Below are positions 24,375 to 61,741 of a stretch of 64,000 nucleotides of DNA, in pieces. The position numbers and the translations under genes were made by a program. Each line of letters starts with the position of its first letter. Within the stretch, counting starts at the first letter, position 1. Origin of the DNA: an uncultured Acidobacteriota bacterium (GTDB taxonomy: Bacteria > Acidobacteriota > Vicinamibacteria > Fen-336); NCBI GenBank assembly GCA_963760685.1, contig CAVXEA010000003.1:875781-939780 (forward strand), in the 5' to 3' direction. Below the pieces are notes generated by a model. The model did not search any database. It worked only from the letters and a program-made list of their open reading frames with translations, and was not told where the DNA came from.

Positions 24375-25105
24375 ATGGGCATCGACGGGCGAAGCGTACT
24401 GGTGACGGGAGGGAGCCGAGGGCTCGGGGCGGCGCTGGGCCGGGAGCTGGCGCGCCGCGGGGGGCGCGTCGTGCTCGTGGCCCGCGAGGGAGGTCCCCTG
24501 CGGGAGGTGGTGGCCGAGATCTGGAGCAGCGGGAGGAGAGGCGCATGCCCTGGCCGCGGACGTCGGCGATCCCCTGGCCGTCCATCCGCTGATCGGTGCC
24601 GCCAGCGCCCTCGTGGGGCCCCTCGACGTGGTCGTCCACAATGCCAGCACTCTGGGCGCGTCGCCCCTCCGCGATCTGGCCGACACCGAGGGCCAGGACT
24701 TCGCGCGCGCCCTGGAGGTGAACCTTCTCGGACCCTTCCGCATCACGAAGGCCGTGGTGGGATCGATGCTGTTGCGGCGTCGGGGGCTCGTGGTGAGCGT
24801 CACGTCGGACGCGGGGGTCGTCGCCTACCCGCGCTGGGGGGCCTACGGTGTCTCCAAGGCCGCGCTCGACCACCTGATGCGGACCTGGGCCGAGGAGCTG
24901 CGCGAGAGCGGCGTGCGCTTCCTGAGCGTCGACCCCGGCGAGATGGACACGCGCATGCACAAGGAGGCGGTTCCGGAGGCCGACCCGGCGACGCTCGCCT
25001 CCCCGGACGAGGTCGCGTCGCGAATGGCCGACCTGATCGAGGCAGTCGGAATCGTGGCCGAGCGGGGCCCGGGTCGAGCTCGCGTCGTTGCGGGCCGCGG
25101 CATGA
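24375..25105 (+). CDS. SDR-family short-chain dehydrogenase; frameshifted near 24525 and probably again near 25090
   Basis: N-terminus VLVTGGSRGLGAALGRELARRGGRVVLVAR. After a frame change: EAHALAADVGDPLAVHPLIGAASALVGPLDVVVHNAS ... YGVSKAALDHL. An ATGA stop/start overlap with queA is visible only in a third frame. Confidence 0.7.
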
Positions 25106-26172
25106 CGCCCGCCGCGTGGCCACGCGCGGACCGCCTCGACACGCGCCTCTTGCTCGTGGACCCCGAGGGTCCTCGGTTCGAGGACCGCCGCTTCGCCGAG
25201 CTGCCCGGCGTCCTGCGCGCGGGCGACCTGCTGGTCGTCAACGACGCGGCCACTCTGCCGGCTTCGCTGCCGGGGTCGAGCGAGCGGGGCACGGTCGAGG
25301 TGCGCCTCGCGGCCAGGGGCGCGACGAACCGGGAGTGGACCGCGGCGCTGTTCGGGGCCGGAGACTGGAGGCAGCGGACCGAGGACCGACCGGCCCCGCC
25401 CGCGTTGGCCGCGGGGTCGGCGCTCCGCTTCGGCGAAGGGCTCGGCGCTCGGATCGAGCGTGTCCACGACGTCTCGCCGCGGCTCGTGGATCTCCGGTTC
25501 GATCAGGACGGCGAAGAGCTCTGGAGCGCGCTCTACCGAATCGGCCGGCCGGTCCAGTACTCGTATCTCTGCGGTCCGGTCTTGCTGGGGCAGGTCCAGA
25601 GCGCCTTTCCCGGTCGGCCGGTCGCGGTGGAGATGGCCTCGGCGGGCCGAGCTCTCACCATTGCCTTACTGGGCGATCTCCGGCGCCACGGAGTGGGGGT
25701 CGCTTCCTTGACCCATGCGGCCGGCCTTTCCGCCACCGGCGATCCCACCCTGGACGCGGCGCTACCGCTGCCCGAGCGCTACCTGATTCCCGCCGCCACC
25801 GTCGAAGCGATCCAGGGAGCGCGGGAGGTCGGCGGGCGAGTGGTGGCGACGGGCACCACGGTCGTGCGCGCGCTCGAAGGATGTGCGGCCGCCCACGGGG
25901 GCGAGGTGCGGGAGGGAAGCGGGGTCACCGACCTTCGCATCGCGGGCGGTTTCGCGCCCAGGGTCGTGGACGGCCTGCTCACCGGCATGCACGAGCCCGG
26001 GACCACGCACTTCGAGCTGCTGCACGCGTTCGCTCCCGAGCCCGTGTTGCAGGCGGCGCACCGGCACGCCGAAAGCCGGGGCTACCTCGGCCACGAGTTC
26101 GGGGACGCGTGCCTGATCCTGGGACCGGCGTCCGCTAGCCGCGCCCGACGAACGGCATCCGCGTCGCCATGA
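25102..26172 (+). CDS. queA: S-adenosylmethionine:tRNA ribosyltransferase-isomerase
   Basis: Motifs [79 protein letters not shown]. Confidence 0.85.
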
Positions 26173-26893: not shown

Positions 26894-26933
26894 CCCAAGA
26901 TAGTATCCCCGTGGAATCCAAGCGGAGGCACCG

Positions 26934-29649: not shown

Positions 29650-29651
29650 CC

Positions 29652-29695
29652 CGGACTATTCACGAAGTCCACCTGACCGCTTCGTGAATAGTCCG
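29652..29695. terminator. Perfect 16-bp inverted repeat CGGACTATTCACGAAG-N12-CTTCGTGAATAGTCCG between convergent genes
   Basis: Read directly, 3 nt after the stop at 29649; no U-tract. Confidence 0.4.
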
Positions 29696-32443: not shown

Positions 32444-33381
32444 CGCTACCTTCCGCCCGGGGCCTTCAGGTACTTCAGCATCTCCGAGTCCGTGGTGAGG
32501 ATCAGCCAGGTCTTGGCGTCGAGACTCTGGTCGAGCGTCTCCATGGTCTTCCAGAACTGGTAGAACTCGGGCTCCTTGTTGTAGGCCCGGGCGTAGATCG
32601 CAGTGGCCTTGCCGTCGGCCGCGCCCTTTCAGCTCCTGGGCCGAGCGGTATCCGGCGGAGGAGGCGGCGAGGACGTCCCGTTCCTTCTGGCCGCGGATCT
32701 CGGCGGCACGGCCCTGTCCCTCGGAACGGCTGCGCTCGGCGATGCGCTTTCTCTCGGAGCTCATCCGCTCGAAGACCTTCTGCTGCACCGTCTCCACGTA
32801 GTTGATGCGCTTGAAGCGCACGTCCACGAGCTCGATGCCGAACTCCGGGGTGATCTTGGCCGCCTTGTCCAGGATGATCTGCGCGATCTTGGCTCGTCCG
32901 GCCTGGATCTTCGCCATGGCCTCGGCGGCGCCGATGCCCTCGAGCTCTTCGGTGGTCTGGAAGGGCCGATTGCTCGAGCGCACGACCTCGATGAGGTCGA
33001 ACGAGGCCACCGCGTTCCGGGTCTCGCCGTCCACGATGTCGTCGAGGCGGCTCTGCGCCCCTCGCTCGTCACGCACGGCCTGGTAGAAGCGCAGGGGATC
33101 CGGATGCGCCACCGCGCGTAGGTGTCGACCCAGATGTACTTCTTGTCCCGGGTGGGGATCTCGGTGGCGTCGCCGTCGTACTCGAGCCAGCGTTTGTCGA
33201 ACCGGTGGACGACCTGGACGAACGGAATCTTCACGTGAAGGCCGGGCTCCTTGACGAGCCCGCCCACCGGGCGTCCGAACTGAACGAGGATCGCCTGCTC
33301 GGTCTCGTTCACGGTGTAGATGGCCGAGTTCAGCACGAAGAGGGCGAGGAGGACCGCCGCGATGCGCCAGGGGCGGCTCAC
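32444..33381 (-). CDS. hflC: SPFH protease modulator HflC; two 1-nt frameshifts near 32626 and 33105
   Basis: Three frames carry RPWRIAAVLLALFVLNSAIYTVNETEQAILVQFGRPV; then DPLRFYQAVRDERGAQSRLDDIV ... AQELKG; then AADGKATAIYARAYNKEPEFYQFWKTMETLDQSL ... KAPGGR*. GTGA overlap with hflK. Confidence 0.8.
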
Positions 33382-34407
33382 TGGGCCTTCTCCTTTTCCT
33401 TCGGTTCGTTGTCGAGCTGAAGCAGAGGCATGATGTTCCTCGCCTTGTCGTCGAGCACGATCTTCTTCCCGAGCTTGGGCATGAGCTGGCTCATGGTTTC
33501 GAGGTACATCCGCTTCCGGGTCACGGCGGGCGCCTTCCGGTACTCGTCGTAGAGGGCGTCGAACCGTTTGGCGTCGCCCTCCGCGTTGTTGACCCGCTCC
33601 ACGGCGTAGCCCTCGGCCGCGCGCACGGCCTGCTCGGCTTCGCCCTTGGCCTTCGGCACCGCCTTGTTGTACTCGGCCCAGGCGTCGTTGATGGCTCGCT
33701 CCTTCTCCTGGATGGCCTGGTTCACCTCGTTGAAGGCGGGCTTGACCGGGGTCGGCGGGTTGACGTCCTGCAGGACGAGCTGCTGGACCTCGATGCCGAT
33801 TCCGTAGAGCTCGCACAAGCCGCTGCAGCTCCTCCTTGGCCCGAAGGGCCACCTCTTCGCGGCCGATGGTCAGCACCTCGTCGACGCTGTGGTCGCCCAC
33901 CACCATGCGCATCGCCGCCTCGGACATGTAGCGAAAGGTCTCGGGGACGTCGCGGACGTGGAACAGGTACTGGCGCGGGTCCTTGATCCGGAACTGCACG
34001 ATCCACTCGACGACCGCCACGTTCAGGTCCCCGGTGAGCATGACGGACTCGCCCAGGGTCTCCGGCGACTCGGGGGCGAACTCGGAGCGCGCGGCGGCGC
34101 GGACGGTGCGGAATCCGAACTCCATCTTGAGCTGGCGCTGGACCGGCACCTTCGTCACCTGCTCCACCCCGAACGGGATCTTGAGATGCGGCCCGGGGTT
34201 GGTCGTGCGCTCGTAGGCCCCGAAGCGCTGGATCACCGCCACCTCGTCGGGCTCGACCTGGTAGTAGCCGGTGAAGAGCAGTACCACCGCGAAGAGGACG
34301 ATCGCACCGATCCGGAGCATGCCCGGGTTCGGACGAGGGAACGGGGGCAGGCGGAGGCCCTCGGGCCCGATGTCGATCGGACCCTGGCCCCAACCACTCT
34401 TGGCCAT
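33378..34407 (-). CDS. hflK: SPFH protease modulator HflK; 1-nt frameshift near 33820
   Basis: N-terminal TM plus ERTTNPGPHLKIPFGVEQVTKVPVQRQLKMEF. After the shift: GIGIEVQQLVLQDVNPPTPVKPAFNEV. Confidence 0.8.
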
Positions 34408-34459: not shown

Positions 34460-35795
<1,336 letters not shown>

Positions 35796-36542: not shown

Positions 36543-37907
36543 TCAGCCCTCGGCGGGCCTTCGAGCCAACACGATTCCGTGCTTCTTGATGCGCTCGTAG
36601 AGAGCGCTTCGCGACAGGCCCAGGCGCTCCGCCGCCCGGGGCACCGCCCCGTGCTCTTCGCGCAGCACGGCCTCGATGTGGAGGCGCTCGGCTTCGGCGA
36701 GGGTTCCCAAGGGGCCGGTTGCGGACGCAGGTCCACTCGCGGGCAAGCCTCCACCCAGATCGGCGTCGCTCAGGACGGGATGGTCCGAGAGGAGCACGGC
36801 CCGCTCCAGCACGTTCCGGAGCTGCCTGATGTTGCCCGGCCAGGGATGTGCCTTGAGCGCTCGCTCCGCCCCGTCCGACAGCGTGACCCGGGGTCGGCCC
36901 ATCTCGGCGCCGATGCGCTCCACGAGCCGCCTTGCGAGCAGCACGACGTCGTGGCCGCGTTCCCTCAAGGGAGGGACGACGAGGGGGAGGGCATTGATGC
37001 GATAGAGGAGGTCCTCCCGGAACTTCTGCTCCGTGACGAGGCGCCCGAGGTCCCGGTGGGTCGCGGCCACCAGCCGGATGTCGACCTGTCGGTCCCGCAC
37101 GTCGCCCAGGCGCCGGAAGCGGAAGTCCTCGACGACCTTCAGCAGCTTGGCCTGCACCTGAAGGTCCACGTCGCCGATCTCGTCGAGGAAGAGCGTGCCC
37201 TTGTGGGCCATCTCGAGGAGGCCGGGCTTGGACGCCACCGCCCCGGTGAACGCCCCCTTCTCGTGGCCAAAGAGCTCGCTCTCCAGGAGCTCGCGGGAAA
37301 GACCGGCGCAGTTGAGGTCCACGAAGGCCTCGTCGGCGCGCGGCCCGTTCCCGTGGAACCAACGGGCGAGGACGCCCTTGCCCGTGCCCGTTTCTCCGTG
37401 GATGAGGACCGGCACCGAGGACGAGGCGACGCGAGCGGCCTCGGCCGCGAGCTTGCGGATGGCGGGGCTCTCGCCGAAGAACGGGTCCACCGCCTGGCGG
37501 GTCTGCGCCGACTTGCCCACCAGCGAGACCCGCCGCATGCGGCGTGTCTCGAGGCCGCGCTCGACGACGACGAGCAGGGCGGAGAGCTCCACGGGCTTGG
37601 TCAGGAACTGGTCCGCTCCCTCCTTGATCGCCCGCACCGCGAGATCGATGCTCCCGTGCCCGGTCAGGAGGACCACGGGCAGCGACGCGTCCTGGGCCTT
37701 CAGGGCTCGCAAGACGTCGAGGCCGTCCCCGTCGGGCAGCGAGAAGTCCACGATCGCGGTGTCCGGCTGCTGCTTGCGCACGATCTCCAGCGCGGCGGCC
37801 AGGCCTCCGGCCTCGAGCGTCCGGTAGCCCTTGTTGGTCAGGAAGCGCCGCAAGGGAAGCCGCACATCGTCCTCGTCGTCGACGAGGAGGATCGTCCCCT
37901 CAGGCAT
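36543..37907 (-). CDS. Sigma-54-dependent response regulator (NtrC family: REC + AAA+ + Fis-type HTH)
   Basis: REC segment LLVDDEDDVR ... VVLLTGHG. AAA+ segment GETGTGKGVLARWFH, and GAFTGA motif. C-terminus ERLGLSRSALYERIKKHGI. Confidence 0.9.
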   Translation of the reverse strand: MPEGTILLVDDEDDVRLPLRRFLTNKGYRTLEAGGLAAALEIVRKQQPDTAIVDFSLPDGDGLDVLRALKAQDASLPVVLLTGHGSIDLAVRAIKEGADQFLTKPVELSALLVVVERGLETRRMRRVSLVGKSAQTRQAVDPFFGESPAIRKLAAEAARVASSSVPVLIHGETGTGKGVLARWFHGNGPRADEAFVDLNCAGLSRELLESELFGHEKGAFTGAVASKPGLLEMAHKGTLFLDEIGDVDLQVQAKLLKVVEDFRFRRLGDVRDRQVDIRLVAATHRDLGRLVTEQKFREDLLYRINALPLVVPPLRERGHDVVLLARRLVERIGAEMGRPRVTLSDGAERALKAHPWPGNIRQLRNVLERAVLLSDHPVLSDADLGGGLPASGPASATGPLGTLAEAERLHIEAVLREEHGAVPRAAERLGLSRSALYERIKKHGIVLARRPAEG

Positions 37908-41976: not shown

Positions 41977-41989
41977 GACGCTACCCTCC

Positions 41990-43842
<1,853 letters not shown>

Positions 43843-47276: not shown

Positions 47277-47292
47277 AGTTAGGGAGCACGCC

Positions 47293-49397: not shown

Positions 49398-50628
49398 TCA
49401 GAACCGATAGACGACCGAGACCAGGCTTTCCTTCAGCGCGCTTCGCGAAGTTCGCCGCGAAGTCGATCTGGAAGTGGCCGCCCAGCACGAAGCCCGCTCC
49501 GAAGGTGCCGTGGACCTGGTTCGAATCCTGGAGCTTCTGGCCGTCGTGGTCGGGATCGGTGAAGACGCCGGCCCGGATCGAGAAGGGCGTCTTGCCCGAA
49601 AGGAAGGTGTACTCGGTGCCCAGGTGGAACTCGACAGCCGTCGTCGATTCCCTCCAGGATGTCGGCGTTGTCGGTCAGGTCTTCCCGACTGGGGGACAGC
49701 ACCGAGTACTTGATCCACCGGACCTCGGTCGACAACACCCAGCGGTCGGTGGGGCGGAACGCGATGCCGCCGCTCAGGATGTCCGGGACCTGGTAGTCCA
49801 CGTCCTCGGGGGTGGGTCCGCTGGCGAGGGCGTCGCCGAAGTTGGGGCCGGAGGAGAACTCCTGCGTCGATCCGCGTGAGGCTGTACTTGCCGCCCTGCT
49901 CGTAGAACGACCCCGGCCGAGAACTTGCCGTTCGGGTTCACGAGCACGCCGACGTTGAAGGTGACCTGCCGGTTCTCGTCGTTGATCTGCCGCGACAGCC
50001 GATACGTGTCCCCGTCCACGTCGGCGTAGTCGAAGACGTTGCCGGTGTTCTGCGAACCTGAGCGCGAGAATCCCGGACGGAGGCTCCCACCGCGAGGTTG
50101 GGAGTGATCTTGAAGGCCACGGAGGCCCCGATGTTGTCGAGCAGGAGGTCCGCACTCGAGCTCAGGGCGAGGTTCGCGGGCGTGCCCTCGAAGACCTCCC
50201 CCTGGTCGGAAGAACGGGAAGAGCTCTTGAAGTTGGTCGCCTGCTGGTAGTAGACGGAGATCGCCGCGCCTCTTGAAGGGGTAGACGAAGCTGAAGTAGG
50301 CGGGCGAGACCACCTTGCGTCGCGAAGGTCGCCTGTCTGATTCGGGTCACCCAGGAAGGGGTTGACGAACTCGTTCTCGAACCGCGTGGTGCGCAGGTGC
50401 GCGGAGATCTCGGGCTTGGTCAGGATGGTGAGGCCGGCCGGGTTCGACTCGGCCGCGGTCGCGTCGTCGGCGATCGGCGACGAACGTGGCTCCCATGCCG
50501 AGGGCCCGGGCCCCGGGCGGCGCGAACTGGAACTGGACGGGGATGGTGCGGGCCCGTGGCTTCGTTTGCGCCATGGCCAACGGGGCCGCCAGGAACAGGA
50601 CACCGAGACCCATCATGGTCCGCCGCAT
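49398..50628 (-). pseudogene. FadL-like outer-membrane beta-barrel (OMP2, paralog of 10941-12341); at least 4 frameshifts
   Basis: Signal peptide MRRTMMGLGVLFLAAPLAMAQ; GARALGMGATFVAD. In another frame SPIADDATAAESNPAGLTILTKPE (compare OMP1 AVSDDGTAASWNPAGL). C-terminus ...LVSVVYRF*. Confidence 0.6.
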
Positions 50629-50715: not shown

Positions 50716-51815
50716 TCACCGGCTCTGCTTGAAGAGCTCGACGAAGCGGGGGCGAGAACGCCTGCGGATCGGGGCTCGCCTGAGGATCGAGCTTCTTGCA
50801 GGCGCGGGCGTCGGCCTGTGAGCTCGCCAGGAGGCCTTGATCCTTCTCCCCGCCGATCAGGTAGAGGGCGTGGCGGGCCGCCGCCCGCAGCATCAGGCCT
50901 TGAGCGCCCGCCTTGCCGGGGAGCGCGTCCGCGCCCGCGAGGAGCGCTACCGTTTGCGGGTACTGGGCCGCGAAGAACGCCCGCGCTCCGGCCCGCAGCT
51001 CGTCCGGGGCCGGCGCCCTGGTCGGCGGCGCCGTGGGGACGGTGCTGGGCGACGGAGTCGGCTTGGGAGCAGGGGTCGCCTCGGCGCGCCTTCGCGTGGC
51101 ATGGCTGCATCACCCCGTCGAGCTGCTGGGCCGCGCGGTCCGCGGCCTCGCGCGCTTCCCCGAGCGGACCGAGATCAGGCTTCCGGCGCGCGGCCTCGAG
51201 CTTGGCGCGGGCTGAGGCCAGAGCCTCCCGCGCCCGTTCCTGGGTCGGGCCGAGCGCGCCGTCCTGGCTCCAGAGCGGGGCCAGAACCGGATCACCCGAA
51301 AGCGCTATCACCGCTCGCATGGCGTCGTCGGCGCGCTTCAGCGCGGCTTCGGCCGCCTGCGTGGCCTGGGCCACGGCTGCGGGGTCGGGCCCGGGCAAGA
51401 CGGCGGGGGAGTGGGCTTGGGCGGTGCGGACTTGGCCTCGCACGACCCCCTTGTTCTTCGCCAGGGTCCGGTACTGATCGGTCTTGCGCACCGCCCCCTG
51501 GGCTTCGGAGATGGCCCACGACCGCAGAGCGCCCGGGCAATCGCCGGAGTTGAAGAGGGCGAGCCCGAGGTAGAAGTGAGGCAGGTAGGTCTCGAAGCGC
51601 TGGCCGTAGAAACGGATCGTCTCGCCTTCGGTGGGCCTGGAAGCGATGGCCTCCTGCATCAGACGGGCAGCGTCTGCCCACTTGGACTTCTCGACGGCCT
51701 CGACGCCCTGCTTGTAGCCGTCCTTGTAGTCGGCCGAGGCGAGGCGCGCGAACCCCGGCAGGGCCAGGAGCAAGAGGGCGACCGGCGCGAGAAGGCTCCG
51801 GGTCCGCCTCCTCAA
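50716..51815 (-). CDS. Secreted 'YxxYLPxxYL'-repeat TPR-like protein (paralog of 48520-49374); at least 1 frameshift
   Basis: TTG start with GGAGGG RBS. Signal peptide MRRRTRSLLAPVALLLLALPGFARLASA. Motif RFYGQRFETYLPHFYLGLALFNSGDCPGAL. Start overlaps the stop of the upstream kinase-PEGA gene. Confidence 0.55.
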
Positions 51816-54168
51816 AAGCCGACCCTCCGAAGGTATTCGTCGGCGTCGACGTGCTGGAGCTCGACGAGCAACGGCTCGGTGGCCGCGGCCCGGACGCGCG
51901 CCTTCCGTGTCACCGCGGGGCCGGCCTGGGGGTTCTTGAGCGTCACCGTGTACTCGCCTATCGGCAAGGTCAGGAAGAGCGGCGTGAAGCGCGTCGGAGG
52001 AAGCGACACTCTCTTGCCCGACGCGTCCACCACCTCGACCACCTCGGCCCAGGGCAGCGCGTCGACGGTCGAGCACCCCGGAACCCGCGGCCACCGGCTC
52101 CGAAACCGGGGGAGCGGTCGGGGCGGCCGACGGGGCTGCCGTCGGGCTTGGAAGCGTCGAGGTGGAGACGGAGGTCGAGGGCTCCGGTGCCGGAGCGTCG
52201 CCGCGGCCCTTGAGGACCCAGTAAGCGCCACCACCGACCACGAGCAATGCCAGGAGCCCGCCGATTCCCGCCCAGAGGCCGAACGACATGTCGGTCTTCG
52301 TCTGAGCCTGCGGGCGCTGGGCGCTGGCGGGCGGTGCCGGCCCCCGCGGAATGGCGGTTGGCTGAATGGCGGTCGGAGGAGCCGCCTTTACCTTGACCGT
52401 CGCCTCGCGGGCCTGTCGCTCTTCGTCCTTCAGGCGCTGCCGCAGAGCGCGAAACGCCTCGGCTCCGAGCTCCCGCTCGTGACGGGAAAGGAGGCTCGAG
52501 GCCTCCCGCAGGTCGCCGACCTCGATCCGCTCTTCGACCGCCGCCACCGCGGCCGCCACGCTCCGCCCCTTGCGTTCCTCGTCCAACTGCTTCTGGACGG
52601 CGGCCGTCACGCGCGCCAGGAACTTCTTGACCTCGTGGTTCTCGGGGTGGAGCTGGAGGGCCTCGCGCAGGAGGTCCTGGGCTTCGGCCGGGCGCTGCGC
52701 CTGCTCGAGCGCCTGGGCCCGGCCCAGGCGCTCCTTGACCGCAGCATCCCGTCGCTCGATCTTCGCCTGCTGCAGGAGCTTCTGGGCGGCGGGCAGCGGC
52801 TCGCGCCCGCCGTGACGATGAAGCGCCTCGGCCAGCGCCTCCTCCGCCCGCTCCAGCTGGCCTTCGCGCAGGTAGCCGCTCGACCTCGGCCCCGGCCGCC
52901 CGGGCCCCTTCTCTCTCCCGCTCCTCGTATTGCTTCTTCTCGATGGCTTCGTCCACGGTCCGGAGAAGCGACTGCACCTCTTCGTTGTTGGGATCGAGGT
53001 CGAGGGCCGCGGTCAGGGCGATCCGGGCCTCGTCGAGGCTCTTCTCGGCCCGCAGGGCCCGGGCCCGCTCGACGAGGCCGGAGAGGCGTTCGGAACGCTG
53101 GCGGTCCTCCTCCCACGCCTTGCGGATCTCGGCGATCCGGGCCATGAGCGGGTCCATGACCTGCGAGAAGGTCGCGCTGTCGCGGTGCCGCTTGCGGGCG
53201 AGGGTCAGCTCCAGCTCGGCCGCGGTCAGGTCGCCCTTCTCGACCGCGTCCCGGAGGCGCTTCTCCAGGCTGCGGAGGGTCTCGAGCTCGACCGCGGTCT
53301 GGGCGGTCGAGATGACCTGGGTCGCCGTCTCGGGCGTGGGCGCCACCGGGGAGGCGTTTCCCTTGACCTGCTCGCGGATCGGCCGCAGGTCGGCGAGCAG
53401 AGGCGTGAAGCTCGCGTAGCGTTCGGCCGGGTTCTTGGCGAGGCTCTTCTTGACCAGCCGCTCGAGGGCGGGCGGACACTGGGGCCATACCGAGGACAGG
53501 GGCGCAGGCTCTTGACCGATGATCTGGAAGAGGACCGCCGACATGTTGTCCGCCACGAACGGGCGCTGGCCGGCCAGGAGCTCGTAGCTCATGACCCCGT
53601 AGGAGAAGATGTCGGCGCGCAGGTCCACCTTCTCGCCGCGGATCTGCTCCGGGGGCAGGTAGCCGGCGGTGCCCATCGCCATGCCGGTGTGGGTGAGCTG
53701 GGTCTCGGCGCTCGCCAGCTTGGCGATGCCGAAGTCCATGATCTTGACGCTGTCGTCTTCGAGGATGCGGATGTTGGCGGGCTTGATGTCGCGGTGCACG
53801 ACGCCCTGCGCGTGCGCGTACTCGAGGCCCTCGGCCACCTGGACCAGGTAGCTCAGCTTCGTGTAGTCGTCGAGCGGATCGCGCCTCTTGATCTTGTGGG
53901 CCAGGTCCTCCCCGGGCAGGTACTCCTGAACCAGGTAGGGGACCCCGTCCTGGACCCCAAGATCGAAGACGGTGACCACGTGCCGGTGCTGCAGGTTGCC
54001 CGCGATCTCGGCCTCGCGGAAGAAGCGCTTACGTATCTCTTCGTCTTCCGTGGAGCAGGTCTTGATCGCGACCCTTCGCTTGATGAAGGGATCGCGGCCT
54101 TCGAAGACCACGCCGAAGCCGCCCTGGCCGATCTTGCGAACGACCTCGTATTTTCCGATCTTCTGCAT
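51812..54168 (-). pseudogene. Ser/Thr kinase - coiled-coil - TM - PEGA membrane kinase; frameshifted at least twice
   Basis: Kinase domain MQKIGKYEVVRKIGQGGFGVV ... HRDIKPANI ... DFGIAK ... GTAGYLPPE. Long coiled coil. TM FGLWAGIGGLLALLVVGGGAYWVL. PEGA domain LPWAEVVEVVDASGKRVSLPPTRFTPLFLTLPIGEYTVTL. Spread over three frames. Confidence 0.7.
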
Positions 54169-54310
54169 AGGGTGATGGGGACCGGCTCTCCGGAAAACGG
54201 CGCCATTGTACAGCCTGATGCGTCCGTCTCTTGAGGCGAAAGCGCGCGGCGCGTATAGTCCATCTCCTAACGCACCTCTGCCGCCACCTTGGCGTCGCAG
54301 GGGAAGGGTC

Positions 54311-54739
54311 ATGCTTCGGGTCCTCGTCGTCGAAGAACGCCAGGCGGTCCGGGACGGCCTCAAGCGGCTGCTTGCCGTGGCCGGTGAGATCACCGTCGTC
54401 GGAGAGGCGGGGGGAACCGGCGAGGCCGCCGAGATCGCGGGGCGCGTGGACTGCGACCTCGTGGTGCTGGGCATGGCGGGGCTCAGCCCCTGCGGTATGG
54501 ATGCGGTCCGGCGGCTCAGGGCCGCGCTGCCGGGCCTGCACGTCCTGGCCGTGGGACCGGTCGCGTTGGCGGATCAAGCGCGCGAGGCCGTTGCCCAGGG
54601 CGCTTCCGGCTACCTGGACATCAGCCGAGCGCGCGAGGATCTGGTCAAGGCCATTCGCGCGGTGAGCCGAGGCAGCGTGTTCGTGAGTGCGTCGGCCAAG
54701 GAATCCCGCCGCCGGGGGCCTGCCCCGGTGAACACCTAG
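54311..54739 (+). CDS. Stand-alone receiver (REC) domain, atypical or pseudo-receiver
   Basis: CheY-like fold MLRVLVVEERQAV ... CDLVVLGMAGLSPCGMD. The acidic pair is EE rather than DD. The phospho-acceptor position reads Gly (LVVLG) rather than Asp. Confidence 0.6.
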   Translation: MLRVLVVEERQAVRDGLKRLLAVAGEITVVGEAGGTGEAAEIAGRVDCDLVVLGMAGLSPCGMDAVRRLRAALPGLHVLAVGPVALADQAREAVAQGASGYLDISRAREDLVKAIRAVSRGSVFVSASAKESRRRGPAPVNT

Positions 54740-54825
54740 CCGGCCTCGGTCCTCCACCATCCGAGTCGCCCCGCCGCGGCATGTCGTGGATTGACAAGGT
54801 AGCCTCCGGAAGCTACCTTTGGCCC

Positions 54826-55116
54826 ATGAGAGCCGTCGGCCTCAAGATTCTCAAGAACCGGCTCGCCGAGTACGTGCGCCTGGCCGCCTCGGGCGAGACC
54901 GTTCTCGTGACCGATCGCGACCGTGTTGTGGCTGAGCTCGTGCCTCCCACCGCGGGACGCAGTCCCTGGCTGGCCGATGCCCAGCTCGCGGAGGCGGTGC
55001 GCGAGGGGCAGGTGACCGCGCCCCTCATGGTTGCCGAAGGGCCACCCCCTAGAATGCCGGTCGCCCCCTTGAGAGAGCTTCTCGTAGAGCTCGACCTGGA
55101 TCGCCAGGACCGTTGA
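54826..55116 (+). CDS. Phd/YefM-type antitoxin
   Basis: MRAVGLKILKNRLAEYVRLAASGETVLVTDRDRVVAELVP. Confidence 0.65.
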   Translation: MRAVGLKILKNRLAEYVRLAASGETVLVTDRDRVVAELVPPTAGRSPWLADAQLAEAVREGQVTAPLMVAEGPPPRMPVAPLRELLVELDLDRQDR

Positions 55117-55508
55117 TCTACGTCGACACATCGGTCGTCCTCGCTCACCTGCTGGCCGAAGACCGCACGCCCCCGGCGAGGCTCTGGTCAGAGCCCCTGG
55201 TTTCCAGCCGCTTGCTGCACTACGAAACCTGGGCCCGCATCCACGCGCGCGGGCTCGGGTCGAGCCATGGCGAAGCCGTTCGCGCCACCCTCGCGAGGAT
55301 TGCCGCTGTGGAGATGCAGCCGCTCGTGCTTCAGCGCGCGCTGGAGCCGTTTCCGGCGTCGGTGCGGACGCTCGATGCGCTGCACCTGGGCTCCCTCGAG
55401 TTCCTGCGCACGCACGGCCAATCGGTGGCGCTCGCAACCTACGACGAGCGCATGACGACGGCCGCCCGGGCCCTCGGGATCCCGCTCTTCGCGCTCTTCG
55501 CGCTCTAG
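55113..55508 (+). CDS. PIN-domain toxin (VapC-like)
   Basis: MIYVDTSVVLAHL ... with TTGA overlap with the antitoxin. PIN acidic residues at positions 5 and 86 (DTS ... TLD). Confidence 0.65.
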   Translation: MIYVDTSVVLAHLLAEDRTPPARLWSEPLVSSRLLHYETWARIHARGLGSSHGEAVRATLARIAAVEMQPLVLQRALEPFPASVRTLDALHLGSLEFLRTHGQSVALATYDERMTTAARALGIPLFALFAL

Positions 55509-55527
55509 CGCCGCCGCCCGGCGCGGG

Positions 55528-55746
55528 TCAGCGCGACAGCCAGTACGGTCGGTAGTAGTGGTCGGGACCAGCGAGCTTCGAGGGCTTCAGGGGCCGTCGA
55601 AACGCGGCTTCGATCGCGCGCGAGGCGGCTTCGGGGTTCTCCAGCGTGTCGAAGACGAAGCCCACGAGGAACAAGGTGACGAGCCCGCCGGCGACGACGA
55701 CGAGGGGCACGGCCACGATGAAGAGGAACTGGATCAGGGCCATCAA
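55528..55746 (-). CDS. Small membrane protein, hypothetical
   Basis: 72 aa, one TM (LIQFLFIVAVPLVVVAGGLVTLFLVGFVF). Confidence 0.35.
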   Translation of the reverse strand: MMALIQFLFIVAVPLVVVAGGLVTLFLVGFVFDTLENPEAASRAIEAAFRRPLKPSKLAGPDHYYRPYWLSR

Positions 55747-55753
55747 GGCTGCC

Positions 55754-56206
55754 TCACTGGATTCGCATCCTGCCGCTGAATCCTTCTTCGTGGGTATGGA
55801 AGAACTGGAGCGCCGTCTCGGGCCAGCGCCAGCAGTAGTAGCCGGAGCCGTTGTCGAAGTCGACGAGCCAGATGCCCTTGACCTCGATGCCGAAAGACCT
55901 CACCCGGCCCGCCCACTCGTTGACGATGATCGTGGCCTGGGCCTCGAAGCGCTCGGCATCGAGCTTTCCCTCCCCGACCGCGCTGCGCAGGTCCTCGACT
56001 TCCTGGTGCGCCTTCTCCGTGAGCTGACGCACCTCGGGAAGCAAGGCTGCCGCCTCCTCGTAGGAGAATGTGCGCTTTTCGGCGATTCCGCGATCCGCCA
56101 GGGGCCACCTCGCTTCGCGTCCGCGCGCCGCGCGTTCGCGACCGGCGGGAGTATAGCAAAGCTTGACCCCCTGGGAGGCCAGCCATAGACTTCCGCGGAT
56201 GGCCAC
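55754..56206 (-). CDS. DUF2203-like conserved hypothetical protein
   Basis: ...ATIIVNEWAGRVRSFGIEVKGIWLVDFDNGSGYYCWRWPE... Start is likely downstream of the annotated M. Confidence 0.45.
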   Translation of the reverse strand: MAIRGSLWLASQGVKLCYTPAGRERAARGREARWPLADRGIAEKRTFSYEEAAALLPEVRQLTEKAHQEVEDLRSAVGEGKLDAERFEAQATIIVNEWAGRVRSFGIEVKGIWLVDFDNGSGYYCWRWPETALQFFHTHEEGFSGRMRIQ

Positions 56207-59200
56207 CTCGTGGCACCTGACCTCTTTGACGGTCCTCGGGGGAACGCTTCACGGTAAGAAGCTCGCCATCGAAGACGTGGTGGTCGAAGTCCTGATCGGC
56301 TCCGATCCCGACTGCCACCTGCACCTCGACCTTCCGACTGTGAGCCCCATCCACGCCCGGCTCTGGATCGAGCCCGACGACGTGACGGTCTACGGGACGA
56401 AGAGCGGCCCCGGCGTCTTCGTCAACTTCGATCGGATCGACGGCGACGGAAAGCTGCAGCCGGGCGACTTGCTGTGGCTCGGGCCACCGCAGGCGGCCGG
56501 GAGCGTGATGCTCCAGGTCCGCTTCGAAGAGCGCGACACCCTGCCTTCGGTCGTGGTCAGCCCTCTCGCCGACGAGGACCAGGCGGCCGGGGCGCCGGAC
56601 CCGACCCCCGACGTCGCGGAGCCGGGTCCGATTCCCCTGTCGGTCTCGGTGGAGCCGATGCCCGCCGAGGCGAAGGTGGACGCGGAATCGAAGCCGGACC
56701 GCGCGGCGGAGGCCTCAGACGAAGAGCTCGGCGTGTTGCCCGAGGACGCGCCCCCGCCGTTGCAGATCGCACTGCACGCGGAAGAGCCCGAAGCATCGAG
56801 CCCGCCGATTCCCGCGCCGCTCCTGGAGACGCCGGCACTCCCGGCGGCCGCGCCCAGCGGGTTCGAGGACTTCCTGGTCATGGACTCGGCAGCCTCGGCT
56901 CCGACTTCGTTCGCCGCGTCCGCCGACGAGTTCGTGGTTTCGGGCTTCGAGGCCGAGTGGCCGGAGGCCAGCGAGCCCAAGGGTGGCGCCGCGTCCGAGG
57001 ATCGCGGGGCGCCGGTGCCCGAGGCTCGACCGGATCCTCCACCAGCCCCGCTCGCGAACGACGACGTCTTCTTCGTCGACGTCGGCGCTCAGCCGCCGCA
57101 GGTCGCCGAGGAGGCGGAGAGCCACGACGGGTTCTTCATCGACGACGGCATCGCCCCGGCCCCCCCCGCGGCCATGCCGGCCACCCCGCCCCGTATCGCG
57201 GCCCCGGGAGCCGACCAGGATCTGTCCTTCGCGGCCGCCTTCCTCGAAGAGCCTCTGCCCAAGGCCAAGCCGCCGTCCCCGCCGCCTGCCCCTGCACCGC
57301 GTCCAGCCGCTCCCTCTCCACCCCCCGTGGCCAAGCCGGCGCCCGCCGCCCCCAAGCCGGCGCCCGTCCCGCGGCCTTCCGAGCCGGCGCCGCCCAAGCC
57401 CTCGCCCGCGGTGTCGCAAGCCGTGGCCTCCCCGGCGCTTCCTCCGCGGCCGCCCTCGGCCACGAGCGCCGTGCGCCCCCTTCCGCGTCCAGATGTTTCC
57501 CAGTCGGTCGCGCGCGGCGACCGGCCGCCGGTGCCCCGCGCCGATCGCACCCAGGCCTTGCGGGCCCGGCCCCCGGCTCGCCCGCTCGGCCGCTACGCCT
57601 TGCTCGGCCTGATCGCCGTGGTCGTCCTCGGCGGGATCGGGTTTGTCGTGTCGACCTTCCTGCGCGGCGTGCGCCTCGAAAGGATCGAGCCGCAGCGCGC
57701 TCGGGTCGGCGAGACCGTGGCCCTCGTCGGCAGTGGATTCGCGAGCTCGCCGGGAGACAATGCGGTGCTCTTCGACGACAAGCCGGCCAGTGTGACCACC
57801 GCCGCTCCCACGCGCCTGGAGGTCGTGGTGCCGGACGTCGCCCCGAGCGGCACCGACGTCAAGGCCGCGGTTCGGGTGCGGGTGGGCCGCGCCGAGTCGC
57901 TGACCGTCGCGATGTCGGTCTTCTCGGGCCCCGTCCTGCACGGGATCTCACCGGACGTGGCCATGCCGGGCGACGAGGTCGTTCTCGCCGGCTCGGGTTG
58001 GGGTCTTGGCCCCACGGTCCGTTTCGGAGGCTTGCCTGCGGATGTGATGGAAGCCCGCGAGACCTCGATCCGCGTGCGGGTCCCCGCCATCGACGGGGGC
58101 CCCGGGACCTCGGCCCCGGTGGTGGTCAGCTCCGGCTTGCTCGAGTCGAACCCCGGGCCTTTCTACGTCGGACGCATTCCCCTGGTCACCAGGGCCGAGC
58201 CGACGAGCGTGGCCGCGGGGGACGTCGTGACCCTGAGTGGCCGTGGCTTCCGTCGCGAGCGCTCGCAGAACGTGGTCCAGGTCGGGGGGGTGCGGGCCCT
58301 CGTGGTCGCCGCTTTCGACAGCGAGATCAAGGTCGTGGTGCCTCGCGTGGCGGCAGGGTCTCGCCTGTTGGAGGTGCGCGTTCCGAGCTCGGTGGCTCCA
58401 GCCCAGGTTCCGCTCGTGGTGAGCGGGGCGACGGAGGCCCTCGATTTCCATTTCGTCGCGGAGCCATTCGAGGCCGCGCCGGGGCGTGACCACGCGGTGC
58501 TCGCCACCGCCCTCGGGCCCGCTTTCGTCCTCGCGTCGTCGGGCGGCCGCTCCGCCGCCGAGCGCGCATTGGAAGCGGCTCGCCGACTCAACGAAGCGGC
58601 CCCGGCCCTCAAGGCGGCGCCCGATCTCACGTTCGAGTTGCGGGACGCCGACTCGAAGCCTTCCCTGGGCCTCATCGGCCGGCCCGAGATCCTGATCGAG
58701 GTCACCGACGAGGACGCCGTCGCCTACGCCGAGGATTGGACCGGCCTCCGCGGGCGCGGCGGAGCCGTGACTTCGGGTCGCCTGGGAAAATGGTGGGAGG
58801 CGGTCGCCAGGGACCTCGCGCTCCTGCTGGTCCGCCGGGCGCGGCCTCATTTCGCGGCCGACCTCGCCCCCGAAGGGCGAGCTCTCGTGGACTTCTTCCA
58901 GGCTTCTGAGCGCGGTGGCGGCGCCGGAGCCTCGGCCAAGCCTCCGCTCCGCGACGCGCTCCGGCTCGTGGCGCTCCGCGTTCCTCCCGGGGTTCGGGGG
59001 CCCGTGATGGTGGCTCCGGTCTCCGGGTCCAGCCCGACGGCCTCCGGAACGCCCCCGTCGTCCGTCGCCCAGCCGATGCCACGTCTCGAAGGGCCTTGGA
59101 CCGGCACCGAGACCGAAGGCGACCGACAGCGGTACGTGACCGTGACCTTCCGCGGCGCGACGGGCACCCTCGCCTACGAGAGTGCCATGACCGTGAGCAC

Positions 59201-59375
59201 TCCCCTCCTGAGCGTCGACCAGCCGCAGCGGGGAGTGGCGCGGTTCAGCGTCGAGCTGCGCGGGGGGCTCCGCTACTACGTCGGCCGCTGGGAGGGCCAG
59301 GCCCTCTCCGGCAAGATCTCGACGGATCCGGGCGGTTCGCAGAGCCTTGGCACCTTCGAACTCCGCCCCCGATAA
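56199..59375 (+). CDS. FHA-domain membrane protein: FHA - Pro/Ala-rich linker - TM - 4x IPT/TIG-like - C-terminal domain
   Basis: FHA segment LTVLGGTLHGKKLAIEDVVVEVLIGSDPDCHLHL ... VSPIHARLWIE ... GTKSGPGVFVN. TM YALLGLIAVVVLGGIGFVVSTFL. Repeated RIEPQRARVGETVALVGSGF / ISPDVAMPGDEVVLAGSGW / EPTSVAAGDVVTLSGRGF modules. Uninterrupted 3.2-kb frame. Confidence 0.75.
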   Translation: MATSWHLTSLTVLGGTLHGKKLAIEDVVVEVLIGSDPDCHLHLDLPTVSPIHARLWIEPDDVTVYGTKSGPGVFVNFDRIDGDGKLQPGDLLWLGPPQAAGSVMLQVRFEERDTLPSVVVSPLADEDQAAGAPDPTPDVAEPGPIPLSVSVEPMPAEAKVDAESKPDRAAEASDEELGVLPEDAPPPLQIALHAEEPEASSPPIPAPLLETPALPAAAPSGFEDFLVMDSAASAPTSFAASADEFVVSGFEAEWPEASEPKGGAASEDRGAPVPEARPDPPPAPLANDDVFFVDVGAQPPQVAEEAESHDGFFIDDGIAPAPPAAMPATPPRIAAPGADQDLSFAAAFLEEPLPKAKPPSPPPAPAPRPAAPSPPPVAKPAPAAPKPAPVPRPSEPAPPKPSPAVSQAVASPALPPRPPSATSAVRPLPRPDVSQSVARGDRPPVPRADRTQALRARPPARPLGRYALLGLIAVVVLGGIGFVVSTFLRGVRLERIEPQRARVGETVALVGSGFASSPGDNAVLFDDKPASVTTAAPTRLEVVVPDVAPSGTDVKAAVRVRVGRAESLTVAMSVFSGPVLHGISPDVAMPGDEVVLAGSGWGLGPTVRFGGLPADVMEARETSIRVRVPAIDGGPGTSAPVVVSSGLLESNPGPFYVGRIPLVTRAEPTSVAAGDVVTLSGRGFRRERSQNVVQVGGVRALVVAAFDSEIKVVVPRVAAGSRLLEVRVPSSVAPAQVPLVVSGATEALDFHFVAEPFEAAPGRDHAVLATALGPAFVLASSGGRSAAERALEAARRLNEAAPALKAAPDLTFELRDADSKPSLGLIGRPEILIEVTDEDAVAYAEDWTGLRGRGGAVTSGRLGKWWEAVARDLALLLVRRARPHFAADLAPEGRALVDFFQASERGGGAGASAKPPLRDALRLVALRVPPGVRGPVMVAPVSGSSPTASGTPPSSVAQPMPRLEGPWTGTETEGDRQRYVTVTFRGATGTLAYESAMTVSTPLLSVDQPQRGVARFSVELRGGLRYYVGRWEGQALSGKISTDPGGSQSLGTFELRPR

Positions 59376-61741
59376 CCCGCCCGCCCCGCGCCCTCCGGGG
59401 CAGGCCCTGATCGGCGAGCACATCGGTCACTATCGCGTCGTCCTGGCGCCTCGGGCAGGGAGGCATGGGCGAGGTCTTCCTGGCCGAGGACATGACCCTT
59501 CGCCGCCAGGTCGCCCTGAAGGTCTGCGCGGCCGAGGAGGCGGGCGAGCGGCTCCTCCACGAGGCCCGTGCCGCTTCGGCGCTCGTGCACCCCAACATCG
59601 CCGTGGTGTACGAGGTGGGGAGCTTCGAGCGCGACGGACGCGAGCAGACTTACATCGCCATGGAGTACGTGCCCGGCCGTACCCTCGCGCGGCTCGCCCA
59701 GGAGCGCGAGCTCGCTCCGGGCGAGGTCCTCGACATCGTGGGCCAGGTGGTCGAGGCCTTGACCGCCGCTCACGCCCACGGCGTCGTCCACCGCGACATC
59801 AAGCCCTCGAACGTCATGGTGACCGAGGATGGCCGGGTCAAGGTCCTCGACTTCGGCCTCGCCAAGCACGTGCCGTTCGTGGGCGAGTCGGCCGACACGT
59901 GGAGCGGGCAAGGCCGCCTGTCGGAGGCGACGGGCGCGCTCGTCGGCACCGCGGCCTACATGTCACCCGAGCAGGTGAAGGGCCTGGACGTGGACGCCCG
60001 GAGCGACATCTTCTCCCTGGGAGTCCTGCTCTACGAGCTTCTCGCCGGGGGACGCCCCTTCGCGGGCGAGACCGCGGTGGAGGTCCTCGGCGCCGTGCTG
60101 CACCTCGATCCTGCGCCGCTCGAGGTCGCCGCGCTGCCCGGCCTCGAGCGCGTGGTCCTGAGGATGCTGTCCAAGGACCGGGAGCAGCGGTTCGCCAGCA
60201 TGGCCGAGGTCGGCGAGGCCCTCGCGGAGGTGCGTCGCGGGTCTTCGCCGCGCGAAGACGCGCCGGCGAGCCCGACTCCGACCGTGGCCGCGATCCGCTT
60301 CACCAACATCACCGGCCGCCCGGAGGACGACTGGCTGGGCACGGGGATCGCGGAGACCCTGATGTCCGACCTGAAGGTCCGGGAGGGGTTGAGCCTCGTC
60401 TCGCGCGAGCGGACGCATGGAGGTGCTGCGGAAGCTCGGGGCGCGGGGCGTGCGCGAGGAATCGCTGGCCCTGGCCCTCGGGCCGGGAGGTCGGCGCGCG
60501 CTTCGTGGTGAGCGGCGGGTACCAGCGGCAGGGCGAGGAGATCCGCGTCACCGTACGCGTCACGGAGATCGCGACCGGCGCGGTCGCGGGCACGTCGAAG
60601 GTCGACGGCCGCATGGGAGAGATCTTCGAGCTGCAGGACCGCATCGCCCAGGGCGCTGCGTCGCTTCTCCGGGTCAGCGTGGCCCCGCCCTCGCGGCGGG
60701 CCGGGAACGACACCGAGGTCCTCGAGGCCTACGAGGCCTACTCCCGCGGCCTCGTGTTCCTGCGGGCGGAGAGCCACGAGTCGCTGGACCGCGCGCTCGA
60801 GTCGTTCGATCGGGCGATCCATCTGGATCCGGCCTACGCGAAGGCGCACATGCAGCGGGGCGTGGCCCTGGCCGTGAAGGCCGGCCACCTGGGGCGCCCG
60901 GATCTCTACGAGCCCGCGCTTCAGAGCCTGCGCAAGGCCACCGAGCTCCGACCCTCGCTGGCCGAGGCCTGGCGGGAGCTCGGGGCCACCCTCGTCTATA
61001 CGCGCGAGGACGAAGCCGTCGAGGCCATCGAGCGCGCCCTCACCCTCGAGCCGGGAGACGCGAGCGCGCATGCCGCCCTGGCGCGGGCCTTCTTCATCGG
61101 GAAAGGGGACTTCGCGCGGGCGGCGGTCGAGTACGAGCGGGCCCTGCTCCTGAACCCACAGGCCGGGTGGACCGCGTTGCAGCTCGCCCACTGCGCGGCG
61201 TTCCTGGGCGAGTACGCCCGCGGGGAAGCGATCGCGCGGCGCGCCATCGTCCTTCAGGAGGAGCTGCTCGCCGGGCCAGGAGGGGCTCTTGATCATCGGC
61301 GCCTACCTCCGCCTCGGCCACCTCCACGCTCTCCAGGGCAGATACGCGGAGGCGAAGACCCAGTTCGAGCGCGAGATCGAGTTCCTCGGGCGGGTGGACC
61401 ATGCCTTGAAGGCGCGCATCTTCATCGAGCTCCACACCCGTCTGGGGGCCGCCCTGCCTGGGCCTCGGCGACGAGGCCGGCGGCCGCGCCACCCTCGACC
61501 TCGCCATCGGGACCTTCGAGCGCCGACTGCGCCTCGAGGGCGACGACCCTTTCACCCGCTACTACGCGGCTTGCGCGCACGCCCTGCGGGGCGATCGTGG
61601 GTCGGCCCTCGACAGCCTCGAGAAGGCGGCGGCCGGGCGCCGCGCTTTCACGCTCGCCCGGGCCAGGATCGATCCGCTGTTCGACACGCTGCGCACGGAG
61701 CCGCGGTTCCTGAGCCTGATCGGTCCCGCCAGTCGCCGCTA
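59347..61741 (+). pseudogene. Ser/Thr kinase with C-terminal periplasmic-like domain and TPR repeats; at least 4 frameshifts
   Basis: Kinase domain GMGEVFLAEDMTLRRQVALKV ... HRDIKPSNVMV ... DFGLAK ... GTAAYMSPE. Then FTNITGRPEDDWLGTGIAETLMSDL ... RFVVSGGYQRQGEEIRVTVRVTE. Then TPR blocks AYAKAHMQRGVAL ... AEAWRELGATL. C-terminus ...IDPLFDTLRTEPRFLSLIG. Confidence 0.7.

Follow-up and report, generated by a model that had tools for sequence, protein, structure and literature searches.

Why are so many conserved genes of this acidobacterial genome interrupted by single-nucleotide shifts of the reading frame? Is the organism losing these genes, or do the shifts exist only in the deposited sequence? 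The question arises in a window of 64 kb, i.e. the whole stretch of DNA analyzed here, which is part of a 3,447,677-bp contig deposited at NCBI and ENA. An earlier note on this DNA had attributed the shifts to assembly error, with some real decay of glycoside hydrolase genes. Judged from the sequence comparisons described below, the frame breaks are most probably (at roughly 0.93) consensus errors of the deposited assembly, almost all of them spurious single extra bases whose density is locally uneven, and there is no support for a real decay of the hydrolase genes.

Extent and nature of the frame breaks

Within-gene frame switches were detected by a codon-usage HMM, as a screening of whole ORFs by GC3 was too crude at 70% GC and was dropped. 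The sites of the events were placed by frameshift-aware protein-to-DNA alignment, which, together with searches with the repaired proteins, was used instead of tblastn with all ORFs of the relatives, since the latter produced too many spurious antisense matches. Wherever two independent references were used, the sites agree between them.

The window contains 56 one-base frame breaks in 18 genes (Table 1), 54 of them at 24.3-61.7 kb and two at 12.9-13.2 kb, at a rate of about 1 per kb. The abundant single-nucleotide breaks of the earlier note were found again at or near the positions given there, and their number, about 45, was too low. Its counts hold for the Ser/Thr kinase with TPR repeats (4), kbl (3), hflC (2), the PEGA-like Ser/Thr kinase (2, with 2 or more claimed) and SDR1 (2, with 1-2 claimed), as well as for the single breaks in hflK, thrC, the histidine kinase, the small outer-membrane protein and the fmdB-type protein. 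Other counts had to be revised, i.e. Tat-GH has 10 breaks (about 9 claimed), OMP2 10 (4 or more), the TPR-like secreted protein 6 (about 4) and GH3 3 (4), and the YLP-motif protein and the fucosidase, for which single breaks had been listed, have 4 and 2, respectively. The single break assigned to a kinase at 12338-13139 exists, but this region is part of a 600-aa gene with two breaks. That gene falls outside the interval 24375-61741 to which the earlier note referred.

The breaks are highly uniform. Extra bases account for 53 of the 56 and missing bases for three (binomial p = 8e-13), and every single event (56/56) has a size of 1 nt; indels in multiples of three are seen in the nucleotide comparison as ordinary variation among relatives. 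Most apparent -1 shifts are two insertions 10-35 nt apart, and the residues between them match the reference, as in the fucosidase, where the eight residues FGYKDFIP between the two insertions are an exact match in the third frame. In case of the OMP2 pair 50053/50063, just three residues lie in between, and a single deletion is therefore still possible at this point.

Table 1. Genes with one-base frame breaks and clean blocks in the 64-kb window
Position	Strand	Feature	Frame breaks
12338..14196	-	TPR/PEGA-TM-Ser/Thr kinase gene	2 insertions (~12901, ~13206)
24321..25105	+	short-chain dehydrogenase SDR1	2 insertions (24530, 25045)
25102..26172	+	queA	1 missing base (~26130-26138), last four codons
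26934..29649	+	Tat-signal protein, ~900 aa (Tat-GH)	10 insertions (27409, 27960, 28068, 28636, 28835, 28929, 29031, 29239, 29354, 29387)
32446..33381	-	hflC	1 insertion (32629, TT to TTT), 1 deletion (~33102)
33378..34407	-	hflK	1 insertion (33818)
34460..35795	-	thrC	1 insertion (35708, AA to AGA)
37879..40387	-	PAS-GAF-PAS histidine kinase	1 insertion (~39289)
40442..41985	-	alpha-L-fucosidase	2 insertions 25 nt apart (41630, 41655)
41993..43822	-	GH3 glycoside hydrolase	3 insertions (42644, 42771, 43474)
44810..45644	+	small outer-membrane protein	1 insertion (45383)
46734..47166	+	fmdB-type zinc-ribbon protein	1 insertion (~46842)
47289..48486	+	kbl, 2-amino-3-ketobutyrate CoA ligase type aminotransferase	3 insertions (~47406, 47806, 47980)
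48520..49371	+	TPR-like secreted protein	6 insertions (48580, 48839, 48873, 48979, 48995, 49206)
49398..50628	-	FadL-like outer-membrane protein OMP2	10 insertions (49437, 49636, 49868, 49908, 50053, 50063, 50271, 50317, 50333, 50475)
50716..51815	-	YLP-motif/TPR-like protein	3 insertions (50752, 51110, 51452), 1 deletion (~51400)
51812..54168	-	Ser/Thr kinase with C-terminal PEGA-like region	2 insertions (52070, 52875)
59465..61741	+	Ser/Thr kinase with TPR repeats	4 insertions (60416, 60480, 61273, 61457)
13300..24500		clean block	0 frame-breaking indels in 11.2 kb, 12.4 expected at window-wide rate (Poisson P = 4e-6)
52900..60400		clean block	0 in 7.5 kb (P = 2.5e-4)

Once repaired, all 18 genes align in a single frame and over their full length to intact orthologues in related metagenome contigs, with 73-99% amino-acid identity from end to end (single-frame matches in contigs L001, L003-L005 and L008-L012). 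In the raw frames, single Pfam domains are spread over two to three frames with complementary profile coordinates. This is the case with kbl, whose Aminotran_1_2 domain is found in three frames (profile positions 2-143, 147-196 and 208-360) and whose repaired product matches both L003 and L005 at 91% identity without a change of frame. The adh_short domain of SDR1 lies in two frames, there are gaps relative to L001, and the ORF has full length once repaired. Pfam domains are likewise split in the fucosidase, in GH3 (aligned in a single frame to L010) and, over two frames, in the histidine kinase (to L011), and the Zn_ribbon_8 domain of the fmdB-type protein, which aligns to L005, falls in another frame. 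Intact orthologues of the small outer-membrane protein (278 aa, L010), the PEGA-like kinase (779 aa, L008) and the 12338..14196 kinase (600 aa, L012) were found, the last with nucleotide gaps at 12901 and 13206 and a full-length frameshift-aware alignment at 91% identity; homologues of the 59465..61741 kinase with 85-86% identity are intact as well, with single-frame alignments in L008 and L009. The sites in the TPR-like secreted protein come from the references L003 and L005, those in the YLP-motif protein from L003 and L008. For OMP2, the references L003 and L004 agree on the ten sites to within 6 nt, and L003, L004, L005 and L008 each contain a single-frame match to the repaired protein. 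In Tat-GH, the identical ten extra bases are seen against both L001 (92% nucleotide identity) and L002 (84%), and their repair yields an ORF without stop codons and without multi-base indels.

Some of the searches returned few or no matches. OMP2 matched only three short contigs among the metagenome contigs, and the FHA protein matched only Vicinamibacteria relatives among the genome contigs, at 32% identity. In an exact look-up of the protein collection with repaired thrC, hflK, hflC, SDR1 and Tat-GH products, including seven start variants, there were no independent copies of the same strain; the ADH control was likewise unmatched.

Selection on the repaired genes

Do the affected genes bear any other mark of decay? 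Among the 8,476 aligned codons of the 18 genes, there are no internal nonsense codons, and the one stop that was scored falls within the final few codons of queA. The dN/dS values of the repaired genes (0.05-0.20) are in the same range as those of their intact neighbors (0.08-0.21); hflK (99% identity) has a dN/dS of 0.05, and hflC (97% amino-acid identity to L001) one of 0.07. Even Tat-GH has a dN/dS of 0.18. Its lineage-specific amino-acid changes amount to 11 in the window and 33 in the orthologue, i.e. there is no rate acceleration, and its own nucleotide changes are distributed 9/9/31 over the three codon positions (63% third-position), so that no relaxation of selection is seen on the disrupted lineage. 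The lesion spectrum of pseudogenes, with nonsense codons, indels of mixed size and a deletion bias, is absent. Instead, single-base indels whose removal restores full ORFs occur without other signs of decay, and they also affect essential single-copy genes, with thrC, kbl, hflK and hflC among the housekeeping genes concerned. What speaks more strongly for an artefact than a location in homopolymers, and strongly supports the assembly error assumed by the earlier note, is the 53:3 excess of insertions together with the uniform size of 1 nt, the missing nonsense codons and the purifying selection that still acts on the repaired genes.

Position and sequence context of the extra bases

The strong clustering that had been claimed is significant (index of dispersion 2.5 in 47 one-kb bins, p = 8e-8), but it does not indicate a decay of glycoside hydrolase genes, as had been suggested. 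The breaks are densest in OMP2 and the TPR-like gene, beside kbl and the YLP-motif gene, with 16 events over 2.1 kb, whereas the densities of GH3 (3 in 1.8 kb) and of the fucosidase (2 in 1.5 kb) are close to the mean of the window. Break density tracks position and not gene class or function.

Two blocks are free of breaks (Table 1). The block at 13300..24500 shows only 3-nt indels relative to L001/L012 at 86-90% nucleotide identity, and it is the only part of the window that was found in the Logan assemblies of two sequencing runs, ERR12036786 and ERR15459708, whose contigs end near 13.1 kb and 24.2 kb. Short-read support does not account for every clean block, because a further one at 5-12.9 kb was not found in these assemblies. 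The block at 52900..60400 contains a response regulator, DUF2203, the 3.2-kb FHA gene and the start of the Ser/Thr kinase with TPR repeats. The freedom from breaks reported for 14-24 kb, the permease, FHA, alr, ADH, Nramp (confirmed by NCBIfam), NtrC and the IS110 transposase holds, and so does that of queA, apart from a single-nucleotide difference within the final four codons. The IS110 transposase is located at 879-1925, not at 16.5-18.1 kb. A dependence of the errors on GC content was rejected, as clean and dirty blocks do not differ in GC, and so was a dependence on divergence from the relative, as there are regions of 89% identity with 0 events and of 96% with several.

The inserted bases are mostly non-templated and do not resemble slippage. 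When 17 one-base insertions were mapped against L001, the closest relative, ten turned out not to extend a homopolymer (e.g. GG to GCG, CC to CGC, AA to AGA). The proposed location in homopolymers therefore applies only weakly; it covers a minority of the sites, among them the histidine kinase insertion, which is the only one in a long run (C7, which reads as G7 on the coding strand). The break sites have no evident sequence or methylation motif in common. A simple stacking of two SNP alleles was considered and is not supported, because a hand count of the contexts shows a transition partner of a neighboring base inserted at just 5 of the 11 clean sites, about as many as expected by chance.

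In many respects, the window resembles the residual consensus indels of Nanopore or PacBio assemblies and MAGs, in which one-base indels split conserved and even essential genes (PMC9262707, PMC8812927). Such indels fragment genes in a coverage-dependent manner (PMC9262707), and the rate of about 1 per kb, the inheritance of truncated proteins by public annotation and, probably, the dependence on local support are common to both. In contrast to the published residual errors, which mainly concern homopolymer length (PMC8812927, PMC9262707), some 95% of the events in the window are insertions, and most lie outside homopolymers. This signature is atypical and unusual for nanopore-type errors, which lie in runs and are mostly deletions. 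When divergent alleles are collapsed, reads are misaligned and indel errors introduced (PMC8445201), and this would likewise generate frameshifts in particular stretches and leave those clean where the population is uniform; here it is a candidate cause. In high-GC genomes with biased Illumina libraries, long-read-first assemblies are more error-prone (PMC6325685). The contig would have been built from error-prone long reads. Where reads were few or contradicted each other, extra bases may have survived the consensus or polishing step, possibly because the depth was low, several strains were assembled together or polishing with short reads was patchy, while better-supported stretches would have come out clean.

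Alternative explanations and consequences

What alternatives exist for consensus errors? It is conceivable, though unlikely, that a few of the events are genuine differences in the organism and only the rest are errors. Candidates are the change in the last four codons of queA, the C7 insertion of the histidine kinase, the hflC deletion and the insertion/deletion pair of the YLP-motif protein. Homopolymer runs are natural slippage sites, the queA event alters only the C-terminal tail and may be natural, the YLP pair, about 50 nt apart, restores the frame after some 16 codons in a poorly conserved, Pro/Ala-rich low-complexity linker, and one-base indels relative to the relative are also present in intergenic DNA, where natural variation is expected. 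On the other hand, these sites are indistinguishable from the other 50, the histidine kinase retains full conservation of its domains beyond the C7 run, and repaired hflC is 97% identical to its orthologue, with a dN/dS of 0.07. A very recent burst of real, non-templated single-base insertions, either in the genome itself or in a sub-population that dominates the reads, is highly improbable. It would have struck accessory genes no less than housekeeping genes over patches of several kb, and neither selection nor further mutation would have left another trace yet; if true, it would imply an unusual insertion-generating mutational process, e.g. a faulty polymerase or repair system that affects the DNA in patches.

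A recent pseudogenisation, in which the lineage loses glycoside hydrolases, outer-membrane proteins, kinases and some housekeeping genes by frameshift, has very little probability as well. Pseudogenes accumulate in reductive genome evolution, e.g. in Mycobacterium leprae and host-restricted Salmonella, and the clustering of many frameshifted genes in one region, with ten breaks in Tat-GH alone, is reminiscent of this. The window also contains IS elements and differs from its relatives in gene content, and the genome is therefore not static. However, bacterial mutation and pseudogene decay are reportedly deletion-biased, as Mira, Ochman and Moran in 2001 and Kuo and Ochman in 2009 are said to have found, which is the opposite of the insertion excess observed here. 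The missing nonsense codons and multi-base indels, the maintained selection, the position of most events outside runs, the dependence of density on position rather than function and the disruption of thrC, kbl and hflKC argue in the same direction. In contrast to these examples of reductive evolution, the organism is a member of a free-living soil lineage of high GC, and its nearest named relatives are Vicinamibacteria. Programmed recoding, i.e. ribosomal +1 frameshifting or transcriptional slippage that restores the frame, is of negligible probability. It would agree with shifts that go nearly all in one direction, but nothing specific points to it. A single gene can have as many as ten sites, no slippery motif is common to them, and the sites are not conserved, because all relatives encode these proteins in one frame.

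As consensus errors and not gene decay best explain the frame breaks, they represent a data-quality problem. The deposited record contains 18 genes of the window in truncated or split form, thrC, kbl and hflKC among them, and the truncated 393-aa thrC product, present in NCBI/ENA, has already entered public protein collections. Without repair of the frames or renewed polishing, the contig would lead to wrong pathway reconstructions, pseudogene counts and pangenome comparisons for this genome. The signature of single-base insertions (some 95% of the events) that fall mostly outside homopolymers and form kb-scale patches differs from the usual picture of homopolymer deletions and could serve to flag similarly affected public long-read assemblies. 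The frame breaks themselves have no biological significance, and the organism almost certainly carries intact thrC, kbl, hflKC, hydrolase and kinase genes.

Detection and catalogue of the frame breaks

With a GC content of 62-73%, and ~70% across most of its length, the window is filled with long spurious ORFs in all six frames, so that ORF lists are unable to show frame breaks. Decoding with a codon-usage HMM, which had six states for the coding frames and one for non-coding DNA and was trained on long clean ORFs, revealed many direct same-strand frame-to-frame switches at 24.3-61.7 kb and at 12.9-13.2 kb; at 13.3-24.3 kb, and wherever 4.9-12.3 kb is coding, it switched at ordinary gene boundaries only. 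When raw frame translations were scanned against Pfam with stops masked, single domains were found divided between frames with complementary profile coordinates, such as adh_short (positions 3-47 in one frame, 44-191 in another), Alpha_L_fucos (9-80 and 87-345 in separate frames) and Aminotran_1_2 of kbl (2-143, 147-196 and 208-360 across three frames). The N- and C-terminal domains of GH3 lie in different frames, as do PAS/GAF and PAS/HisKA/HATPase of the histidine kinase, and the zinc ribbon of fmdB is out of frame with the remainder of its gene.

The Tat-signal protein (Tat-GH), once its 1-nt indels are undone ("repaired"), has full-length homologues of up to 87% identity in a protein search. 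Window 5-36 kb has a syntenic counterpart, 86-96% identical at the nucleotide level, on the contig of the best match, JGI Ga0483978_0000023 (loci L001 and L012), and related metagenome contigs (L003-L005, L008, L009, L010, L011) cover 38-62 kb. All HMM-repaired proteins align in related loci as one HSP in one frame that spans all junctions; the relatives are therefore intact and the breaks window-specific.

Gaps were read directly from the nucleotide alignment to L001, L002 and L012, and more distant references were compared by a purpose-written protein-to-DNA alignment allowing +1 and -1 shifts; wherever two references were run, both gave the same sites. The total is 56 events in 18 genes, which confirms and extends the frame breaks of the earlier note, whose figure of about 45 had the right order of magnitude but was an undercount. 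Where the HMM path seems to shift by -1, several cases prove to be a pair of +1 events separated by 10-35 nt: the few residues between them agree with the reference when read in the third frame (FGYKDFIP in the fucosidase).

Features of the window, with 1-nt events per gene and dN/dS relative to the L001 orthologue (broken genes repaired)
Feature	Position (strand)	Events	dN/dS
IS110-family transposase	879-1925 (+)
Two overlapping ORFs	3276-4753 (-)
PEGA-TM-kinase	12338-14196 (-)	2
539-aa ORF	16504-18123 (-)
Its inverted repeat (12 nt)	16517-16528, 18065-18076
Two genes	20.3-23.6 kb	intact	0.21
SDR1	24321-25105 (+)	2	0.20
SDR2		intact	0.08
queA		1 (last four codons)
Tat-GH	26934-29649 (+)	10	0.18
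ADH		intact	0.12
Nramp-family transporter	30893-32389 (-)
hflC		2	0.07
hflK		1	0.05
thrC		1	0.08
Histidine kinase		1
Fucosidase		2
GH3		3
Small OMP		1
fmdB		1
kbl		3
TPR-like secreted protein	48520-49371 (+)	6
OMP2 (FadL-like)	49398-50628 (-)	10
YLP-repeat protein		4
STK-PEGA	51812-54168 (-)	2
STK	59465-61741 (+)	4
Region after STK	61742-63375

Distribution along the window and its gene content

The events are clustered, as had been claimed: an index of dispersion of 2.5 (p = 8e-8) was obtained from 47 one-kb bins for which comparison with relatives was possible. Three blocks are free of events: 13.3-24.5 kb, where 12.4 would be expected (P = 4e-6), 52.9-60.4 kb (P = 2.5e-4) and 4.96-12.9 kb (P = 1.5e-4). 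Within the 2.1 kb of TPR-like and OMP2 there are 16 (P = 4e-9). Density rises smoothly from ~44 kb, peaks near 50 kb and is zero by 53 kb, with a second hump at 27.4-29.4 kb. The clustering tracks position rather than gene class: event density in GH3 and the fucosidase is close to average, and the peak falls outside the hydrolases.

Several features were observed alongside. The left end of the window (62% GC) carries an intact transposase (DEDD_Tnp_IS110 and Transposase_20). A second locus there consists of two ORFs that overlap; one of them matches Transposase_20 and Phage_int_SAM_4 in part, and the locus is possibly an element that has been broken or frameshifted. At the other end, the region after STK (~63% GC) has no HMM coding signal and no Pfam match for its ORFs; in L008 and L009 a DeoC-family aldolase gene directly follows STK, so that an insertion or rearrangement is present at this place in the window. 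The Nramp-family gene (NCBIfam NF037982, 167 bits) between ADH and hflC is missing from the corresponding position in L001, and an extra 789-aa MacB/FtsX-type permease gene of L012 (11526-13895), between GGDEF and outer-membrane-protein genes, has no counterpart at window 10890-10934. Repaired, the PEGA-TM-kinase is one 600-aa protein, intact in L012, with signal peptide, TPR-like and PEGA region, transmembrane helix and C-terminal Ser/Thr kinase, a domain order opposite to the one usual in PknB-type proteins. The Tat-GH family (homologues P0001-P0120) is very large: at E <= 1e-10 it has no fewer than 4,498 members of ~900 aa, which almost always lack a Pfam domain, and no PDB relative by sequence; the sole other match of Tat-GH is weak (alpha-D-galacturonidase, NCBIfam NF049878, at 30.7 bits where the cut-off is 1300), and its predicted label as a hydrolase is plausible.

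Decay or assembly error

All 56 events are 1 nt in size, with 53 extra and 3 missing bases (binomial p = 8e-13), and differences of 3, 6 and 9 nt from the relatives are ordinary in-frame variation. Mutation in bacteria is biased to deletions, opposite to this excess of extra bases. The 18 repaired genes, which include thrC, kbl and hflKC, are free of internal stops over 8,476 aligned codons, the sole stop scored being in the C-terminal tail of queA, and dN/dS is 0.05-0.20 for the five broken genes compared with L001 and 0.08-0.21 for intact ones. Could the hydrolase genes nevertheless be truly decaying, as the earlier note had considered for part of the breaks? Ten independent frameshifts in Tat-GH should have been accompanied by neutral substitutions, by nonsense codons and by indels longer than 1 nt, and none of these is seen: dN/dS remains low, private amino-acid changes number 11 in the window lineage vs 33 in L001 (outgroup L002), and the window-private nucleotide changes fall 9/9/31 on the three codon positions. 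With the near-average density in GH3 and the fucosidase and a peak outside hydrolases, genuine decay of this class is not upheld. Assembly error, the other reading of the earlier note, is supported, and we put its probability at about 0.93. Natural variation might account for a small number of sites, namely the queA tail, a C7 run and a compensated pair in the YLP-repeat linker.

Seventeen one-base insertions were mapped against L001, and ten are not run extensions. Flanks identical to L001 make the inserted base exactly identifiable at eight, and in six of these it is not a copy of either neighbour, often breaking up a run (GGGG to GCGGG, CC to CGC, GG to GCG, AA to AGA). A short run is lengthened from 2 to 3 at two sites (29354 and 32629), and the histidine-kinase insertion, mapped separately, is within the long C7 run. 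The events do not show the slippage pattern of natural frameshift mutations, and they also differ from the residual errors reported for long reads, whose pattern is one of homopolymer length (PMC8812927, PMC9262707).

Public copies and possible cause

In exact look-ups, five of ten tested ORF products, among them the truncated 393-aa thrC product, were found on one 3,447,677-bp NCBI/ENA contig. The 539-aa protein (16.5-18.1 kb) is present, and identical, in Logan assemblies of two sequencing runs, with neighbours whose product lengths match those of the window; these contigs (9.4 and 11 kb) correspond to ~13.1 to 22.5 or 24.2 kb, essentially a clean block. Exact look-ups in Logan did not find intact genes from elsewhere in the window. 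This hints that the block at 13.3-24.5 kb has better support, or less polymorphism, in the samples, but the link is partial only, because the clean block at 5-12.9 kb is likewise absent from Logan. The 539-aa ORF itself has a strong coding signal, no match in Pfam or NCBIfam and an inverted repeat at its edges; seen against L012, the closest relative, it forms an insertion of 1.58 kb between two paralogous ~750-aa genes, and it may be an uncharacterised mobile gene.

The best explanation is that a consensus or polishing step of long-read assembly left spurious single-base insertions, at a density that local read support would set. Low local depth, misaligned reads from co-assembled strains (compare PMC8445201) or uneven polishing with short reads, the genome being high in GC (compare PMC6325685), may cause the unevenness. 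As simple predictors of events, GC content and divergence from the relative were tested and not supported, nor was the stacking of two SNP alleles, counted manually from site contexts. The frame breaks are a problem of data quality, not a biological feature, and their error signature is unusual in being dominated by insertions.
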